In this document: in pieces, positions 3,352 to 51,108 of the stretch | How the letters are laid out: every line of letters begins with the position of its first letter | Position numbering within the stretch: the first letter of the stretch is position 1 | Origin: Ignavibacteriota bacterium | GTDB taxonomy: Bacteria > Bacteroidota > Ignavibacteria > UBA10030 > UBA6906 | Assembly (NCBI GenBank): GCA_963843525.1 | Contig: CAWJKM010000002.1 | Coordinates: forward strand, 324,669-388,668 | Reading direction: 5' to 3' | DNA length: 64,000 nt | The notes under the pieces: generated by a model | Database searches by the model: none | What the model was told of the DNA's origin: nothing | The model's input: only the letters and a program-made list of their open reading frames with translations | Made by a program: the position numbers and the translations under genes

Positions 3352-3446
3352 AGGTTCTTATTCGTTGTCGATGGTGGGACCAAGCGGGGCGGTCGCCTGT
3401 ACCTGGCGCCGCCCCGCCTTGCGATCTTCCCCACTCGCTTTCTCCC

Positions 3447-3532
3447 AGTCCCCAAGTCTCCCAGTCCCCGAGTCCCCGAGTCTCCCAGTCTCCCCTTCTC
3501 CCCTTCTCCTCTTCTCCCCCTCCCCCCACCCT
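3447..3532. repeat. Intergenic polypyrimidine (C/T-only) tract built from degenerate tandem CCCAGTCTC / CCCGAGTC / CCCCTTCTC units
   Basis: Read directly: tctcccagtccccaagtctcccagtccccgagtccccgagtctcccagtctccccttctccccttctcctcttctccccctcccccc. It lies about 80-160 nt upstream of the first htrA-like start (3611). Confidence 0.6.
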
Positions 3533-3610: not shown

Positions 3611-4531
3611 ATGACAGAAAAGGAATCCGCTCTTTCCGTGCTTTCGAACGATATCGCCGATCTGGTGGACAGGATCTCCCCGCACGTTGTGGCTGTCCAG
3701 GCGCGCCGGAGCTTCTACTCCAGCGGTGTTGTCTGGCGTGAAGGGATCATCGTGTCAGCTGCCCATACAATTCGCCGTGAGGAGGACATTTCCGTAACAT
3801 TCGGAGTCGCGGAACAAGCGAAGGCAAAACTTGTTGGAAAAGATGCAGGGACCGATCTTGCGGTCCTTGCGGTTGACCGTTCGGACATTCGACCGGTCAC
3901 AAGCGCAGGAAGTGAAAATCCCCGGTTGGGGGATATTGCACTCATTGTGGGCAGGTCACCCAATAGCGGCCCGAACGCGAGTTTTGGAATCGTGAGCGCC
4001 GTTTCCGGGCCATGGCGCACCTGGAGGGGGGGACAGATGGATCAATACATCCGACTGGATGCCGCGCTCTTTGCGGGATCGTCGGGTGGAGCGGTCGTCG
4101 ACCAGACCGGGCGGGTACTGGGTATTGCGACAAATGTGCTTTCGCGCGTTGCCGGACTCGCCATTCCAGCAGCAACGATCGACCGTGTTGTTGCTCTTGT
4201 TCTGAAGAAAGGGGGAGTCCCGACCGCATATCTGGGAATTGGATTGCATCCGGTGCCCATCCCGGAATCGATGCAGCAAAAACTCTCTGTGAAAGACTCC
4301 CGGGGGCTCATGATTCTGGCTGTGGAATCCGGAAGCCCCGCCGAACATGCCGCATTACTGATCGGCGATATTATTCTGGCATTGGACGGAGTGGGGATCG
4401 ATGACCTTGAAAACGTCCAGTCGCTTCTTGGTCCAGACCGGATCGGCTCACCGGTCCGCGCGAAGATTGTCCGGGGAGGCGAACTGAAGGAAATTACCGT
4501 TGTTCCCGCCGAACGGAGAAGCGTGCAATGA
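3611..4531 (+). CDS. Trypsin-like serine protease (S1C, HtrA/DegP-like) with C-terminal PDZ domain; no signal peptide
   Basis: Catalytic triad motifs AAHTI (His), TDLAVL (Asp) and GSSGGAV (Ser). PDZ-like segment LIGDIILALDGVGIDDLENVQSLL. ATG at 3611 is preceded by GGAGAAA. The ORF-track start at 3365 would add a low-complexity P/S-rich extension that overlaps the CT repeat. Confidence 0.85.
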   Translation: MTEKESALSVLSNDIADLVDRISPHVVAVQARRSFYSSGVVWREGIIVSAAHTIRREEDISVTFGVAEQAKAKLVGKDAGTDLAVLAVDRSDIRPVTSAGSENPRLGDIALIVGRSPNSGPNASFGIVSAVSGPWRTWRGGQMDQYIRLDAALFAGSSGGAVVDQTGRVLGIATNVLSRVAGLAIPAATIDRVVALVLKKGGVPTAYLGIGLHPVPIPESMQQKLSVKDSRGLMILAVESGSPAEHAALLIGDIILALDGVGIDDLENVQSLLGPDRIGSPVRAKIVRGGELKEITVVPAERRSVQ

Positions 4532-5382
4532 ATCCGAGAGAAGGGTTGGGTGAGGTCATTGAGCGGCTCCGCCGTTCGACAGTCGTGGTGCGTGAGTCAA
4601 AGAGAGGATCAGGCTCGGGTGTTGTGGTGGATTCCTCGGGACTGATTGTCACCAACGCCCATGTCGCCGTAAATGCAAATCCTCTGGTGGAACTGTGGGA
4701 TGGGTCGAAGGCGAAGGCGATCCTGAGGGCCCGGAACGCGGAACAGGACCTCGCGATATTACAGGTGGACGATGAAAATCTTCCCGCTGTGAAGTTTGGC
4801 GACCCGGGGGCTATTCGAAGCGGAGAACTCGTCATTGCGGTAGGAAACCCGTTTGGGTTCGTCGGCGCCGTGACAACCGGGGTCGTTCACGCCGTTGGAC
4901 CGATGAGAGGATTGGGAAAACGGAACTGGGTCCAAAGCGCCGTTCGATTGGCGCCGGGAAATTCCGGAGGACCGCTTGCGAATGCCCGCGGAGAGATTGT
5001 GGGCGTGAACACCATGCTCGCCGGCGGGCTCGCTCTCGCAATTCCTGCCCCCGAAGTCCTCGAATTCGTGACCGCCTGGAGCAGAGGTTCTTCTCTCGGC
5101 ATCATAGGACGTCAGGTACCCATCACCGTGAACGGCAAACTCCAGGCAGGTGTCGTGATTATGGAAATCGTCAAGGGGAGCTCTGCAGAACTCGCCGCAC
5201 TCCTTCCGGGGGACATCATCGTGGGTCTCGACGGTCAACCGCTGTATTCGAAAGAACATCTCGAGCAACACGTGCAGGGCTCCGAGGGACAGATTTTGCG
5301 GCTGCAGTTTGTCCGGGGAGACCGGTGCCATATCCGAAGTGTCGCAGTTGTACCACGATCCCGGAGGAGCCGGGCCGCATGA
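4528..5382 (+). CDS. Second trypsin-like serine protease (S1C) with PDZ domain; no signal peptide
   Basis: Motifs TNAHV, DLAILQVD, GNSGGPL. PDZ-like segment LLPGDIIVGLDGQPL. ATGA start/stop overlap with the upstream paralog indicates translational coupling. Confidence 0.85.
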   Translation: MNPREGLGEVIERLRRSTVVVRESKRGSGSGVVVDSSGLIVTNAHVAVNANPLVELWDGSKAKAILRARNAEQDLAILQVDDENLPAVKFGDPGAIRSGELVIAVGNPFGFVGAVTTGVVHAVGPMRGLGKRNWVQSAVRLAPGNSGGPLANARGEIVGVNTMLAGGLALAIPAPEVLEFVTAWSRGSSLGIIGRQVPITVNGKLQAGVVIMEIVKGSSAELAALLPGDIIVGLDGQPLYSKEHLEQHVQGSEGQILRLQFVRGDRCHIRSVAVVPRSRRSRAA

Positions 5383-5496
5383 TCCGTGTTGCCATCGAAA
5401 CGAAATCCCCATTTGCGAAAGCTGCAATCACGCGATTGCTCTCCGGCGCTGCCGGGATCGAAATAGTCTGCTTCGGCCAGGGGACATCAGGAGGAG

Positions 5497-6006
5497 ATGA
5501 GTTTCGGGGGAGAATCAGAAGAAGCGGACGTCATCGTAGCGGGAGTAGAGGAGGATGCGGGATGGGAGACAGTCCTCGACATGGCCGGACGGTTGCCCGT
5601 CATCCTCCTTATGGAGGGACTCTCTCTTCTGGAAATCGATGAGGCCCTGCGCAGCGGAGCCGGTGCGATTCTTCCGCTCACCGTGGACGGTGAATCGCTC
5701 ATTGCCGCGATCGTCGCCGTGAATGCAGGATTGATTGTGCTCCCCCGCGGGATGGTGGAAACTGAGAGCATTGGCCAGCACAACGCGCCCTTTTCAAGGG
5801 AGACCGTAGAGGCGCTCACAACCCGCGAACGGGAAGTGTTGGGGATTATCGCAGAAGGATTGTCCAATAAACAAATTGCCGACCGGCTGCAAATATCCGA
5901 TCACACCGTCAAGTTCCATGTGGCGTCGATACTGGGAAAACTCGGTGTCTCGAGCCGGACAGAAGCGGTCACGGCGGCGATTAAGCAGGGTATCCTGATG
6001 CTCTGA
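5497..6006 (+). CDS. LuxR/NarL-family transcriptional regulator (C-terminal HTH); N-terminal degenerate receiver. Probably a longer gene starting at 5379 that is interrupted by a frameshift
   Basis: C-terminal TTREREVLGIIAEGLSNKQIADRLQISDHTVKFHVASILGKLGVSSRTEA is a canonical LuxR HTH. Upstream in another frame, ATG 5379 (RBS GGAGGAG, ATGA overlap with the protease stop) encodes MIRVAIETKSPFAKAAITRLLSGAAGIEIVCFGQ, a receiver-like N-terminus. Removing one G from the G5 run at 5506-5510 fuses the two frames. Confidence 0.7.
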   Translation: MSFGGESEEADVIVAGVEEDAGWETVLDMAGRLPVILLMEGLSLLEIDEALRSGAGAILPLTVDGESLIAAIVAVNAGLIVLPRGMVETESIGQHNAPFSRETVEALTTREREVLGIIAEGLSNKQIADRLQISDHTVKFHVASILGKLGVSSRTEAVTAAIKQGILML

Positions 6007-6065: not shown

Positions 6066-7484
6066 TTATCGTATCAGGACCAGCGGATGAACGGTCGATG
6101 AAAGTCTTTCTCCCGATGGGCCCTCATTCTTTGCGGTTACCTTGCAGAAGTAGACGCCGCTGGCGTGCCCAGCCGCGTTCCAGGTCACCGCGTGCACACC
6201 TGCCTCCACGAATCCCTCCGACAGCGTTTCGATCTCCCTCCCGAGAACGTCGTACACGCGGACAGTGACATAGGCGGTCCCTTGCAGGATATAGCGCACC
6301 GTTGTTGAGGGATTGAACGGATTAGGATAGTTGCTGACGACGGGTGAACCTCCGGGGTTGGCCCCCGATCCCGGGGCTGCCGCTATCGCAGTAATAAAAT
6401 AGGCTCTCTTGAGATCTAGGATCCGGTTGTAAGCCTCGTCAATACGTGCTTCCGCGATAGCGCCGCTGTGGACACCCGTTTCGATCGTGTCGATGAGCTG
6501 GCGGCAGAGAGACATCCCGTTCTTTATGTCACTGACAAAGAGAAGAATGTCGACTCCCGCATTGACGGCCAGGATCGCCGTTTGTCCAAAGCCGAAATTG
6601 TCGGTGATGGCCTTCATGTTGTAAAAGTCATCCGAGATCACTACCCCACTGTAGCCGATGGAGTCGCGCAGAAGTCCGGTTACGGTGTTTTTCGAAAGGG
6701 AGGATGGATAGACACTGTCCCGATGCGCATTGAACAGATGTCCTACCATGACCATGTCCAGACTGTTCGACGCCAGCAACGTCCGGTAAGGGAGCAGCTC
6801 CGAATCGGCCCATGTGTTTGTGATGTCAGGGAGGGTAAGGTGCGAATCGGTTCCGGCACTTCCGTGGCCGGGGAAATGCTTCACACACGTAATGAGCTTG
6901 CGCTCGTGGAATGCGTCCAGAAAGCGCTGGGCATGCGCTGCGACCACAGCGGGGTTGGAAGAAAAACTTCTTCCCAGAGCGCCGATCGCCGGACTTGAAG
7001 GGTTCACGTCGACATCCACGACGGGAGCAAGATCCACCGACATTCCTGCATCGCTCATCCACCCGGCCATCCTTGTGGCCTGGGCCGAGGTCGAATCCAG
7101 TGAGGCGAAGTATGATCCCAGTTGATACTCGGTATAGGTCTTCGCGTATCCGTTATTCAGGTTCAGTCGCGCAACAAGTCCGCCCTCCTGATCGGTGGCA
7201 ATGAACGGGGGTGTCGTTGCCGCACTGTTGATGGAAGCCGTGAGCTGGCGGATTTGCTGTGGAGACAGGCAATTGCCACCCATCAAAATAACCCCACCGA
7301 GGTTTCGGGTTGCGAGATCGGTCCGGATCGTGTCGTCGAGCGTCGAGCCGGAAAACCCCAACATGAGCATCTGCCCGATCTTGTCCCGAAGGGAGACCTG
7401 ACCATACAGTATTGAAGGCGGTGTGCCTGCAAGATATGCGATAAGAAAAAGAAGGCGGAAAAAAACGGTAGATCGTCGGCTCAT
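6066..7484 (-). CDS. Glycoside hydrolase family 3 beta-N-acetylhexosaminidase (NagZ-like) with C-terminal T9SS sorting domain
   Basis: GH3 motifs KHFPGHG and VMVGH. Signal peptide MSRRSTVFFRLLFLIAYLAG. C-terminal [16 protein letters not shown]...VYDVLGREIETL...GVYFCKV is a T9SS CTD. Start chosen at ATG 7484; the ORF-track 7577 start adds 31 aa before the signal peptide. Confidence 0.85.
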   Translation of the reverse strand: MSRRSTVFFRLLFLIAYLAGTPPSILYGQVSLRDKIGQMLMLGFSGSTLDDTIRTDLATRNLGGVILMGGNCLSPQQIRQLTASINSAATTPPFIATDQEGGLVARLNLNNGYAKTYTEYQLGSYFASLDSTSAQATRMAGWMSDAGMSVDLAPVVDVDVNPSSPAIGALGRSFSSNPAVVAAHAQRFLDAFHERKLITCVKHFPGHGSAGTDSHLTLPDITNTWADSELLPYRTLLASNSLDMVMVGHLFNAHRDSVYPSSLSKNTVTGLLRDSIGYSGVVISDDFYNMKAITDNFGFGQTAILAVNAGVDILLFVSDIKNGMSLCRQLIDTIETGVHSGAIAEARIDEAYNRILDLKRAYFITAIAAAPGSGANPGGSPVVSNYPNPFNPSTTVRYILQGTAYVTVRVYDVLGREIETLSEGFVEAGVHAVTWNAAGHASGVYFCKVTAKNEGPSGERLSSTVHPLVLIR

Positions 7485-7643
7485 GGGATCCAAAGGGAAC
7501 GATTCGGAAAGGATGGTCTGGATGGGGATGTATTCAACATACGTCAGGATGGCGACTAAGTCAACCCATGGATTCAACGCAGATTTTCTCTACATTGCAG
7601 AACCATATCCTGTCGACCCCTCACGTCTCTTGATTACACGGCC

Positions 7644-10494: not shown

Positions 10495-13400
10495 ATGATC
10501 CGACCTCTTCGACGCCTGTTCCGTTCCAGATCCCTCCGAGCCCTCGGACTGGCTTTTTTATTCGGTTTGTGTTCCGTCACGGTGATCGCCGTCGGCCTCA
10601 CCCTCCATATCCCGGGCACCCCCATCTCGACGGACGTTGGCGGTGTGTTTTCAACGATCGGGTCAGCCCTCACGGGACCACTGGGGGGTGCGCTCATTGG
10701 CTTGATGACCGGGTTGATGGAGCCGGCCTCCGAGCTCCGGTTGTACGTCATCGTGGATCATATGCTGGCCGGCATATGGATGGGATCTCTGTACTGGATC
10801 ATCTTGCGACGCTATCGAACGACCGCGCAATTTCTCATTGCCTGGGTGGTGCTCGTCTTCGGGTTCTACTTTGTCGCACGCATTCCCGCATTGATCGGCC
10901 TCAAATTCCTTTCTTCTTCCACCTTTGCGCTGATTTCCGGTTCGTCGCATTCGATCCTCAGGACTCTCTACACGATTGACAGGGAGTTGCTTCCCGAGGC
11001 CGCTGTGGTTGCCGGCCTGACCGGCATTGCCCTGCTGGTGTTCCCGTCGGCGTTCCGGATGCCTGCATGGCGCAGCGCGCAGGACTATCGCCGCTATCTT
11101 GCCTACCGGATACGGACTGCCGGATCCGCGAGTTTCCCCAGATCGCTCTCAGTCCGCCTCACCGTGTGGCTCCTCCTGCTATCACTCCTGCCGGTCATGG
11201 TTCTGAGCGTGTTTGTCTGGGACGATGTAACCAATCTCGTCCAACGGCAGGCGAATCTGCGCGATGCGGAACTTGCGGAACAGCTGTCGGCGATCATTGC
11301 GGCGAGGGGGGACGCAGACGTGCTCTCGGTAGTGAAGCCTTTTAATTTGTCCCATACCAAGACGGTCTGGATCATCGACCGCGATGGATACATACTCTAT
11401 CATCCCGACTCAGTGTATGTCGGCATGTCGGCGTACCGGTTCCTCGATTCTGCGTCGGTACAGCGCGCCACAACGAGCAGGAGCGGTTCACTCGTGGATG
11501 AAAAGTTCCGGGCAACCGTCGGCTTCCATCGCCTGAAAGCCAGCAATTCCACCCTCATCGTCGTGGACCCCCAGGAATTTCTCGGGCTGATCCTCCATGA
11601 ATTCCACCGGAGTTCCTATGTCCGGCTCGGTGCAAGCATGATTCTGATCAGCATCATCGGGGGAGTCATCGTCTGGATTCTCGTCGAAATACCCATGAAG
11701 AGGCTCACGAAGGCGACCACTCAGGTCGGCAGGGGGAATTTCTCCGTGGAGGTCCGGGCTTCGGACCTCGATGATGACATCGCCGTACTGGGCGACCGGT
11801 TCAATGTCATGGTCCGGAATCTCCGGTCCCTGCGCGACGGCCTGGAAAAGGAAATCAAAGTACGGAAAGATATCGAGCAACAACTTCGGGAGAGCGAGGC
11901 AAAGTACAGAACGATCATCGAGCAATCATCGGAAGGGATTCTGCTCGTTGACAGCGAGGGGACCGTCATAGAATGCAATCGCGCCGATGAGCTGATTCTG
12001 GGCATCCCGCGGGAGGAGATCATCGGGAAGAGAACCTGGGAGATCTTTCAACCCTTTCAGCATGGAAATCGGGAAGCCGAAAACGCTGCCGATGCGCCCC
12101 GGATGGTTACGCTGGATTCCCGGAGGAACCGCTCGCTCGGGTTCGGGAATTCGACGGAAGTGGTTGTGACCAGGAACGATCGCAAAACGCTCGTTCTCCA
12201 GCAGAGTGTTTTCCCGATCAGGACGGAGGGGGGGTTGCGTATCGGAGTGATTCTGCAGGATGTCACCCGCCGGAAGGAAAACGAGGAAGCGCTGAGGAGA
12301 TCGGAGGAAAAATTCTCCCGGGTTTTCCATACATCACCCGACTCGATTACCATCACCGGACTCCTTGACGGGAAATATCTTGACGTGAACGAGGGATTCA
12401 CGCGGATCACCGGTTACCGGCCCGACGAGGTCATCGGGCGGACTTCGGGCGATCTCGATATATGGGTGGACCATACGGAGAGAGAGAACCTCGTCCTCGG
12501 GCTGAAGCAGAGCGGAGAGGTGACGGGGTTGGATGGATCGTTCAGAAGGAAGGACGGGTCAGAGGTCTACGCCCTGCTGTCCGCAAGAATCATTTCCATC
12601 GAACATCAGGATTGTCTCCTCCTGATCGCCCGGGATGTCACCGAACGGCGGCGGGCCCAGGAGGCGCTGCGGGAGAGTGAAGAGCGATTCCGAAGCGTAT
12701 TTGAACATGCAGCTGTCGGAATCTGTTATGCCTCGCTGGACGGAAACCTGTTGCGGGTCAATAACGCATTGTGTAAGATCACCGGCTACTCTGACACCGA
12801 GCTCACCACGATGAGCTTTCGCGATTTGACGACCGATGACGGGTCTGTGGCGGGCATCGACCCGATCGGTACCATGCTGGGAGAGGGGATTCCGAGTTTT
12901 ACTCTGATGCGGCAGTATAAACATAAGACCGGCCGGGCTATCTGGGTGAACATGACAATCTCCCTCATCAGAAATGCCGCCGGTCAACCGACTTCATTCA
13001 TCGGGATCATCGAAAACATCACGGAACGCAAAAAGGCGGAAGAAGAAATAGAAAAATCGCTGCACGAAAAGGAACTCCTTCTCAAAGAAATCCATCACCG
13101 GGTGAAGAATAATCTTCAAATCATCTCCAGTTTGCTGAACCTGCAATCCGAAGCGATCCGCGACTCCAACGATCGCTCGCTCTTCCGAGACAGCCAGGAC
13201 CGGATCCGTTCCATGGCGTTGATCCATGAGAAACTCTATCAGACGGAAGACTTCTCGCACGTCGATTTTCAACAGTACCTGCGAAGTCTCCTTGCTTCAT
13301 TATTCCGATCCTACCAGACGCCGTCGGTTGTCTGCGTGGAACAAATCGAAGATATCCGTCTCAACATCGACGCTGCGATCCCCTGCGGATTGATCGTGAA

Positions 13401-13665
13401 TGAACTTGTCACGAACGCGTTGAAATATGCCTTCCCCGATGGCCGGGCGGGGGAAGTGAGTGTTTCGTTCTACCGCCTCGAGGACAACCAGCTGGTGCTG
13501 GAAGTGAGCGACAACGGCATTGGCATGCCAGTCCTCGATCCCTCCAAAACCAAAGATCATCTCGGTCTGGAACTCGTCTCCATTCTCGTCAACCAGATCG
13601 GTGGGAAGCAGACTGTGCACCAGGACCAGGGAACAACCTTCCGAATCACCTTCGCTGCTCAATAG
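10495..13665 (+). CDS. Multi-PAS sensor histidine kinase, HisKA_2-type (HHRVKNNLQ) with HATPase_c; N-terminal polytopic membrane sensor plus HAMP
   Basis: Several N-terminal TM segments. HAMP-like segment TQVGRGNFSVEVRASDLDDDIAVLGDRFNVMVRNLRSL. At least 4 PAS/PAC repeats (several RESEEKF/RESEERF linkers). Phosphoacceptor HHRVKNNLQIISSLLNLQ. ATP-binding NELVTNALKYAF...DNGIGMP...GLELV. RBS AAAGGAGGA upstream of ATG 10495. Confidence 0.85.
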   Translation: MIRPLRRLFRSRSLRALGLAFLFGLCSVTVIAVGLTLHIPGTPISTDVGGVFSTIGSALTGPLGGALIGLMTGLMEPASELRLYVIVDHMLAGIWMGSLYWIILRRYRTTAQFLIAWVVLVFGFYFVARIPALIGLKFLSSSTFALISGSSHSILRTLYTIDRELLPEAAVVAGLTGIALLVFPSAFRMPAWRSAQDYRRYLAYRIRTAGSASFPRSLSVRLTVWLLLLSLLPVMVLSVFVWDDVTNLVQRQANLRDAELAEQLSAIIAARGDADVLSVVKPFNLSHTKTVWIIDRDGYILYHPDSVYVGMSAYRFLDSASVQRATTSRSGSLVDEKFRATVGFHRLKASNSTLIVVDPQEFLGLILHEFHRSSYVRLGASMILISIIGGVIVWILVEIPMKRLTKATTQVGRGNFSVEVRASDLDDDIAVLGDRFNVMVRNLRSLRDGLEKEIKVRKDIEQQLRESEAKYRTIIEQSSEGILLVDSEGTVIECNRADELILGIPREEIIGKRTWEIFQPFQHGNREAENAADAPRMVTLDSRRNRSLGFGNSTEVVVTRNDRKTLVLQQSVFPIRTEGGLRIGVILQDVTRRKENEEALRRSEEKFSRVFHTSPDSITITGLLDGKYLDVNEGFTRITGYRPDEVIGRTSGDLDIWVDHTERENLVLGLKQSGEVTGLDGSFRRKDGSEVYALLSARIISIEHQDCLLLIARDVTERRRAQEALRESEERFRSVFEHAAVGICYASLDGNLLRVNNALCKITGYSDTELTTMSFRDLTTDDGSVAGIDPIGTMLGEGIPSFTLMRQYKHKTGRAIWVNMTISLIRNAAGQPTSFIGIIENITERKKAEEEIEKSLHEKELLLKEIHHRVKNNLQIISSLLNLQSEAIRDSNDRSLFRDSQDRIRSMALIHEKLYQTEDFSHVDFQQYLRSLLASLFRSYQTPSVVCVEQIEDIRLNIDAAIPCGLIVNELVTNALKYAFPDGRAGEVSVSFYRLEDNQLVLEVSDNGIGMPVLDPSKTKDHLGLELVSILVNQIGGKQTVHQDQGTTFRITFAAQ

Positions 13666-50243: not shown

Positions 50244-50666
50244 TGCGCTTCTCCTGGTGAGATGTAATTATTCGATTGCGATGGAAAAGACTCAACGTAA
50301 AATATACTGAAATTGCACAGAAAGGGAAAGGATTTCTCCGACGCAGGGGTCTCCGACTGAAAGAAGATATCATTTTCGACTCAAGCTCGCAAATATTCGC
50401 TCTTCTCAACGAAGGGGCAAATCGCTCTTGATTTTCTTCTTGAGGGAACCTATCTTTTTGCGTAGTCCATGTACACCGCTTCTTTTGCCCTTAATGGTTC
50501 CGTTGCTGAAGAGAGAAGTTCCCTGACGGTGAACACTCGCATCAACGGTGGGTGCTGGAGGACTTTGCGCAGTCGGTTGCCTATTAAGTCGCAATGAACT
50601 CGGTGCCCCCTGCGGGCGGCATTGCCGTACGAGTCCAGGAACATCTCACAGCGAAGGAACAGTCCC

Positions 50667-50867
50667 ATGGAGACGGGAGTGGTAAAATGGTTTAATGCCA
50701 CAAAAGGCTTTGGCTTCATTCAACGCTCTTCGGGAGAGGATGTTTTCGTGCACTACAAAGCGATCAATGGTGAAGGCTATCGGACTCTCAACGAAGGTGA
50801 CAAGGTACAATTTGAAGTAGAAAACGGACCGAAAGGGCTTCAGGCGCACAACGTCAGCAAGGTGTAG
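50667..50867 (+). CDS. Cold-shock protein (CspA family)
   Basis: [18 protein letters not shown] (RNP1) and DVFVHY (RNP2). 66 aa. A roughly 420-nt AT-richer 5' leader separates it from fbaB. Confidence 0.9.
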
Positions 50868-51108
50868 ACCGGCGTACCTTTGCGCCTGACACCTCTCTCT
50901 CCCCGGGCAGCTCCGGGGGCAGTTCATCTTCGAACACCGGGAGTTGCGTCCCGGCGTAATGATGTCGGGAACGCAGGGTGTTCGCTGTTCGTCCTCCGCC
51001 AAGGGAAGACCTTCACCTTAAGGTTCGAATATTACGGAGTGTGAGTTGATTGTCAGGTAAGTTGCGCATCTCGCACCGTATCTCTGAGTGATAGCGTCCG
51101 TTGTGGAC

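Follow-up and report, generated by a model that had tools for sequence, protein, structure and literature searches.

Two described systems link HtrA-family proteases to a factor of the response-regulator type, namely, CssRS-HtrA/HtrB in Bacillus and Streptomyces and MprAB-PepD in Mycobacterium. Both of them combine extracytoplasmic proteases with a canonical regulator that is phosphorylated by its cognate kinase. Regulators of a different kind, including VpsT, CsgD, RitR, HP1043, ChxR, and BldM/WhiI, couple a DNA-binding output to a receiver fold that lacks the phosphotransfer residues and are known as pseudo-receiver (PsR) or ALR regulators (PMC12632262, PMC4395418). Pseudo-receivers are estimated to make up about 6% of bacterial receiver domains; evidence on their neutralization is sparse, and how they are switched on and off is largely unknown (PMC12632262). 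Here we describe a locus in a stretch of 64,000 nucleotides (nt) (the window) from an Ignavibacteriota bacterium (assembly GCA_963843525.1, contig CAWJKM010000002.1, positions 324,669 to 388,668 of the forward strand). The interrupted sequence at 5379..6006 of the window (+ strand) is a single gene for a predicted 208-amino-acid (aa) regulator of the NarL/LuxR class with a pseudo-receiver, and this gene is the last of a three-gene unit that begins with two HtrA-like protease genes.

The start codon of the regulator (ATG 5379, + strand) overlaps, as ATGA, the stop codon of the protease open reading frame (ORF) at 4528..5382, and a Shine-Dalgarno (SD)-like GGAGGAG at 5363..5369 (+) precedes it by 9 nt. 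SD-like 4-mers precede 14 of 30 approximate gene starts, compared with a 14% background. The native-frame part of the regulator (5379..5467, +) comprises codons 1 to 29 and the first two bases of V30 (MIRVAIETKSPFAKAAITRLLSGAAGIEIV) and encodes beta1-alpha1-beta2 of the pseudo-receiver (elements E2-8, H11-21, and E27-30 in the AlphaFold2 [AF2] model). Frame 0 is closed by a premature TGA at 5640..5642 (+), and its product is 87 aa long, with 30 native-like residues followed by 57 residues that are out of frame. The remainder of the regulator (5469..6006, +), which holds residues 30/31 to 208 and the stop codon, now lies in the +1 frame, open from 5467 onward after a TAG at 5464-5466. It encodes the rest of the pseudo-receiver, the linker helix, and the GerE/LuxR helix-turn-helix (HTH) (5812..5976, +; residues 145 to 199; Pfam PF00196, E=4.4e-22). 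The start codon, ribosome binding site (RBS), ATGA overlap, frame death at 5642, and +1 frame open from 5467, as well as a run of five G residues (G5) at 5506..5510 (+), had been reported in an earlier note on this sequence, and all of them are read there directly. The same note joined the two frames by a one-base deletion in the G5 run. Deletion of one base does give a continuous product of NarL size (208 aa, or 209 codons including the stop), but the indel does not lie in that run.

The site of the lesion is identified by comparison with a closely related, intact allele. The 284-aa protease encoded directly upstream of the regulator was found with identical sequence in a 5.2-kb contig (L003) of the NCBI metagenome-assembled genome (MAG) GCA_049587695.1, in a 3.1-kb Logan assembly of SRR28023524 (L004), and in a third Logan contig. 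In both L003 and L004, an intact 208-aa regulator gene follows directly downstream of this protease. The two contigs match the window at 98.65% and 99.3% identity and each other at 100% over 3,093 nt, and we treat them as a single independent dataset that went through two assembly pipelines. In the three-way alignment, GGGGG at 5506-5510 is present in the window, L003, and L004 alike. The only indel in the regulator gene is an extra C at 5468 (+), outside any homopolymer, where the window reads ATAGTCTGCTT (ATAGT[C]TGCTT) and L003 and L004 read ATAGT-TGCTT; three-way DNA alignment and pairwise difference lists place it identically. Over the 3.1 to 5.2 kb compared, C5468 is also the sole within-gene indel except for one at the edge of the L003 contig. 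In that place, L003 (around its position 32, 32 nt from the contig end) lacks one G relative to window position 1963, within a CarboxypepD_reg gene of the type IX secretion system (T9SS). The window ORF is intact at 1963, and the missing G is probably a contig-end error of L003, which shows that the short-read assembly is not error-free either. We are nearly certain that the lesion is an extra C at 5468.

The intact protein (P0121; NCBI MGA9119831.1, annotated as [quoted passage not shown]) is identical to the translation of the window over 5469..6006 and reads ...GIEIV-ASARGHQEEMSFGG-ESEEADV across the junction. The related protein P0003 has VEIVASS where the intact allele has IEIVAS. Repair at the G5 run seemed to be supported by the match of its RGES junction to P0002, but the near-identical intact allele rules this repair out, and the match is a chance one in a variable loop. 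The G5-repaired protein is wrong over 13 residues (31 to 44), with CFGQGTSGGDEFRG in place of ASARGHQEEMSFGG, and the literal string GGDEF that it contains is an out-of-frame accident. Frame 0 has no stop before 5640-5642, and the +1 frame has none after 5467. A +1 shift at any point between 5467 and 5642 would therefore change only a poorly conserved loop that is disordered in the AF2 model, which is why a repair at G5 looked plausible.

That the two pieces are one gene is shown by the relatives of the joined protein. A database search returned thousands of them, and the closest are single-frame proteins of 197 to 212 aa at 100% query coverage. M1, I2, R3, and V4 are each at least 90% conserved in the family alignment, L21 is likewise conserved, and these residues are encoded by the upstream frame of the window; the two window pieces therefore form one gene. 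Two syntenic orthologs (L001 and L002; about 50% identity) are 208 aa long, and in both of them, as in the window, the start of the gene overlaps the stop of the protease gene. The orthologs that we examined, for which the earlier note had raised the question of a single frame, are all full-length and single-frame, and none of them starts near 5497 or Met40. P0001, the database entry that gene callers place at 5497..6006 (+; 169 aa, with the ATG of native Met40), is accordingly a truncated call of the 208-aa protein. If instead the 169-aa ORF were a genuine gene and the frame from 5379 fortuitous, the gene callers would be correct, and GGAGGAG before ATG 5497 could be taken as its SD motif. 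However, this motif abuts the ATG with zero spacing and merely represents codons Q-E-E of the intact protein, the product would lack beta1-alpha1-beta2, the upstream frame carries the most conserved N-terminal motif of the family (M1 I2 R3 V4 and L21), and full-length relatives are all 190 to 230 aa in length. An independent 169-aa gene is thus extremely improbable. Very little also speaks for programmed +1 ribosomal frameshifting, or for slippage or phase variation at G5 (CGG GGG AGA), by which a full-length protein changed only at loop residues 31 to 44 would be made. Re-pairing from GGG to GGA before an AGA codon is formally slippery, an SD-like GGAGGAG lies upstream, tandem AGA codons are present, and a +1 shift anywhere between 5467 and 5642 would give a near-native protein whose altered residues fall in a loop (31 to 50) of very low confidence and poor conservation. 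On the other hand, the sister strain and all of the 100+ relatives examined are single-frame, so that no frameshift is conserved, and the actual lesion is a nonrepeat insertion 38 nt upstream of G5. In programmed frameshift genes of the prfB and dnaX type, the frameshift and the slippery site are conserved in orthologs, whereas here the 99% identical allele is single-frame. Phase-variable contingency loci carry a long tract whose length varies among strains, whereas here there is only G5, identical in both strains, and its five bases are far fewer than the tract lengths of known contingency loci. The homopolymer error and the slippage-regulated gene proposed in the earlier note lose their basis because G5 is native sequence in the intact allele, while its other two proposals, assembly error and recent pseudogenization, are both live once they are transferred to C5468.

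Of these two, an error of the assembly consensus, with the organism really making the intact protein, is the slightly likelier one at about even odds, and a real strain-specific null allele, i.e., a true and very recent 1-nt insertion at 5468 in the window strain, is almost as likely. The source assembly is probably a long-read MAG: the source contig is 525 kb long, which is a long-read sign, and “MFD ... contig_N” long-read MAGs are the source of all close relatives. Frame anomalies occur elsewhere in this probable data source. Within 12.6 kb of the sibling contig L001, a PAS histidine kinase gene (L001:9038-12214; 1,057 aa and intact in L002) changes frame three times in about 1 kb, and the two protease genes are joined into a single reading frame (L001:4232-6004, a 590-aa call). 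Either assembly indel errors or decay may explain them, and they bear on the trust to be placed in frameshifts of the same data source. The intact allele, in turn, is from a 5-kb contig (L003) whose accession series is shared with an “MFD..._ilm_asm” Illumina bin. An error is further consistent with the lack of secondary damage, as the remaining differences between the window gene and the intact allele are four synonymous and no nonsynonymous ones, and the N-terminal fragment, the RBS, and the ATGA coupling are untouched. Gene and operon are strongly conserved across phyla, which also argues against a null allele. None of the other datasets searched contained the frameshifted allele: exact DNA patterns for either allele had no match in genome contigs or metagenome contigs, and a protein-seeded scan of JGI metagenomes returned no relative above 48% identity. 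Several observations weigh against a consensus error and for a true insertion. Consensus indels of long-read assemblies are concentrated in homopolymers, and the extra C lies outside one. Elsewhere in the 64-kb window, ORF coverage is 92.5% and there is no other mid-gene frame break; the assembly is thus a good one, in which errors are rare a priori. The scan for frame breaks by codon score is noisy (antisense frames score well) and blind to short N-terminal truncations; two candidate frameshift regions that it produced are ordinary gene boundaries. One broken gene in about 53 genes of the window is within the usual bacterial pseudogene load, and an assembly error would be about as rare as a natural pseudogene. 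Moreover, the window represents a different strain from L003/L004, 0.7 to 1.3% diverged with mostly synonymous substitutions, which makes a strain-specific mutation entirely possible, and the intact allele comes from one independent dataset. A real lesion would postdate this strain divergence. The gene would then yield no more than a nonsense peptide of 87 aa and, perhaps, an N-terminally truncated 169-aa product from Met40, the latter being unlikely to fold as a receiver.

Whichever of the two holds, the intact protein can be compared with known regulators. The Pfam Response_reg model finds no match in the N-terminal half of the window regulator, although it does so in 16 of 32 relatives. Searched against the PDB, the family profile covers VraR (E=1.2e-35) and NarL (1.3e-34) over their full length and also matches the isolated receivers of DesR (2e-11) and CheY (4e-7). 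An AF2 model built on the family alignment (mean pLDDT, 85.9) has the order beta1-alpha1-beta2, a disordered loop (residues 31 to 50, in place of alpha2), beta3-alpha3-beta4-alpha4-beta5-alpha5, linker helix, and HTH. Foldseek matches it with a probability of 1.00 to ChrA, LiaR, VraR, DesR, and NarL (DesR receiver, TMt of about 0.75 and root mean square deviation of 3.6 Å). By these profile and model comparisons, the N-terminal domain is a receiver fold of the NarL class, and the alignment to NarL/FixJ receivers called for in the earlier note thus returns a LuxR/GerE regulator of NarL size with a degenerate receiver. The loop (window positions of about 5469 to 5529) varies in length in the family, with 11 residues missing in P0004 to P0008, and the frameshift lies at its start. 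With VraR as a ruler, the phospho-site residues D8, D9, D54, T82, and K104 correspond to T8, K9, G55, M78, and L100, so that all five are replaced, as the earlier note had claimed for every position of the site.

Degeneracy of the site extends through the family. In a census of 118 members, Ala occupies the first acidic position in 100 and an acidic residue does so in none; at the second, Ala occurs 78 times and Asp once, and the active-site Lys is present in a single member. The acceptor position is occupied by Glu in 59 members and by Asp in 44, while G, F, or V occurs there solely in the clade of the window regulator. The degenerate phospho-site is therefore an old and conserved trait of a large multiphylum family and not decay linked to the frameshift. 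The intact protein, inferred from the missing residues, would be a phosphorylation-independent regulator. It shares the two-domain architecture, size, predicted fold, and strongly conserved GerE HTH of the NarL/FixJ regulators VraR/LiaR, NarL, DesR, and ChrA but lacks all five phospho-site residues, has a disordered loop of variable length instead of alpha2, and belongs to a family with no adjacent cognate kinase and with NCBIfam scores all far below cutoff. It agrees with the PsR/ALR definition of receiver homology and fold without phosphotransfer residues (PMC12632262), as do the known regulators of this class, and Glu at the acceptor (59/118) is the commonest ALR substitution according to the same review. 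In contrast to the known PsR/ALR proteins, these regulators form a separate, uncharacterized family that is near-constantly linked to genes for leaderless HtrA-like proteases, and the clade of the window lacks even an acidic acceptor (G/F/V).

In the window, the unit consists of a distal protease gene at 3611..4531 (+; 306 aa; Trypsin_2, 1e-25, and PDZ_2, 1.5e-12, in Pfam), a proximal protease gene at 4528..5382 (+; 284 aa; Trypsin_2 and PDZ, catalytic triad intact), and the regulator. Both proteases are leaderless and HtrA-like. The distal one keeps His, Asp, and Ser, scores 173 bits against the NCBIfam Do family (below the cutoff of 416), and is present as the same 306-aa gene in L003/L004. 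The regulator is likewise the last gene of the three-gene unit in L001 to L004 and in the distant loci L005, L007, and L008/L009, which share 41 to 45% identity with it and have unrelated neighborhoods. In general, the unit is composed of a Trypsin_2 and PDZ protease of about 305 aa, a Trypsin_2 protease (with or without PDZ) of about 285 to 293 aa, and the regulator. We surveyed 80 species-representative genomes (L010 to L089) of Ignavibacteriota, Acidobacteriota, Nostocales and other cyanobacteria, Chloroflexota, Verrucomicrobiia, Armatimonadota, Burkholderia, and others, which provided 70 loci with at least 2 kb of upstream sequence. Same-strand HtrA-like genes directly upstream of the regulator number two in 42 loci, one in 17, and none in 11; thus, the regulator directly follows one or two such protease genes in 59 of the 70 loci. 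Culturable carriers include Nostoc sp. FACHB-152/-110 and Burkholderia sp. Ac-20353 (L024, L033, and L043). In 39 of 64 loci, the regulator start and the protease stop share exactly 4 nt. The phospho-site is degenerate in all protease-linked regulators, and the single relative with a canonical DD-D-T-K site has no protease.

The two proteases differ in the conservation of their catalytic residues. The triad of the proximal protease is kept almost throughout (H in 60/64, D in 64/64, and S in 63/64), whereas the distal protease has lost Ser in 27 of 39 cases (A, V, or I instead) and His in 14 of 39 (Glu instead); the distal copy of the window, with all three residues, is not among these. By a crude Kyte-Doolittle test, an N-terminal hydrophobic segment is present in none of 39 distal and none of 64 proximal proteases. 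Alignments of the proteases begin at profile position 55 to 59, approximately, of the DegP model, and their NCBIfam scores are all below the curated cutoffs. They share with HtrA/DegP (S1C) a trypsin-like domain with the His-Asp-Ser triad and a PDZ domain, but, because the hydrophobic segment is missing, they would be cytoplasmic by this crude test, unlike the classical extracytoplasmic members. In comparison with CssRS-HtrA/HtrB and MprAB-PepD, an HtrA-family protease is linked to a response-regulator-type factor here as well, whereas the proteases lack a signal peptide or membrane anchor, the regulator has a pseudo-receiver, and the genes overlap by 4 nt in 39 of 64 loci.

The C terminus of the regulator (window positions 5995-6003 for the last three residues) has an invariant length in the family, as each of the 118 database members has exactly 12 residues beyond the RTEA motif, and the last three residues are drawn from LIVMF in 116 of them (VLL, VML, ILL, IMI, LML, and so on). 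This hydrophobic end (…GLVLL, …GILML) could be a ligand for the PDZ domains of the module proteases. As a protease-specific ligand, however, the tripeptide is a weak hint, since it also occurs in roughly one-half of the relatives that lack a protease.

No kinase gene adjoins the regulator in the window, and none was found near the distant loci L005, L007, and L008/L009. An intact 1,056-aa kinase (HAMP-PAS(x3)-HisKA_2-HATPase_c) is encoded at 10495-13665 (+), 4.5 kb downstream, and is syntenic in L001/L002. Because no kinase is present near the distant family members, this one is probably not a dedicated partner of the regulator. PADLOC gave just generic domain-level matches (RT-Protease and CARF-HTH), and the module is therefore not a catalogued defense system; NCBIfam gave nothing above cutoff for the module proteins. 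A protease-pseudo-receiver module is not described in the curated libraries or literature searched, and the words “protease,” “trypsin,” and “HtrA” are absent from the main text of the PsR review (PMC12632262).

Some further features of the window deserve mention. The intergenic region upstream of the distal protease gene (about 3440 to 3500) contains a short G/C-rich tandem-like repeat (…GAGTCCCCGAGTCTCC…) with a 7-nt difference in copy content between the window and L003 (indel at 3478), and this repeat could belong to the promoter or the leader of the operon. On the other side of the unit, the window and L003/L004 carry a GH3 glycosidase gene (6066-7577, - strand; T9SS sorting tail) inserted between the regulator and a DUF4964/DUF5127/GtaA gene. 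The orthologous loci L001/L002 lack this glycosidase gene at the matching position. A low-coding stretch is located around 50270 to 51050. The whole 64-kb window has no tRNA genes and no Rfam family at the gathering threshold.

The gene order suggests a model in which the intact regulator would bind DNA via its HTH without phosphorylation, and in which its amount or activity may be set by the cotranslated cytoplasmic HtrA-like proteases rather than by a kinase; the often-dead distal paralog may act as an adaptor or a sensor. Protease control is proposed because the linkage is tight, translationally coupled, and phylogenetically broad. Autoregulation of the operon by the regulator would be an equally simple explanation. 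It is therefore only tentatively that we propose a new multiphylum module of a leaderless HtrA-like protease, usually a second and often dead paralog, and a translationally coupled LuxR factor with a pseudo-receiver, the activity of which would be set by PDZ-gated proteolysis or sequestration and not by phosphorylation.

The frameshift as such amounts to a correction, being a matter of annotation or assembly quality or an ordinary young pseudogene, and not a slippage-regulated gene. The pairing of protease and regulator is of more interest than the frameshift itself. The wider value lies in the family, a large group of pseudo-receivers in soil and freshwater lineages (Acidobacteriota, Nostocales, Chloroflexota, Ignavibacteriota, and others) that are encoded almost always directly behind genes for predicted cytoplasmic HtrA-like proteases, which points to a specific and testable regulatory partner. 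If the proposed module is true, it would offer a concrete and testable answer to the question of how bacterial pseudo-receivers are switched.

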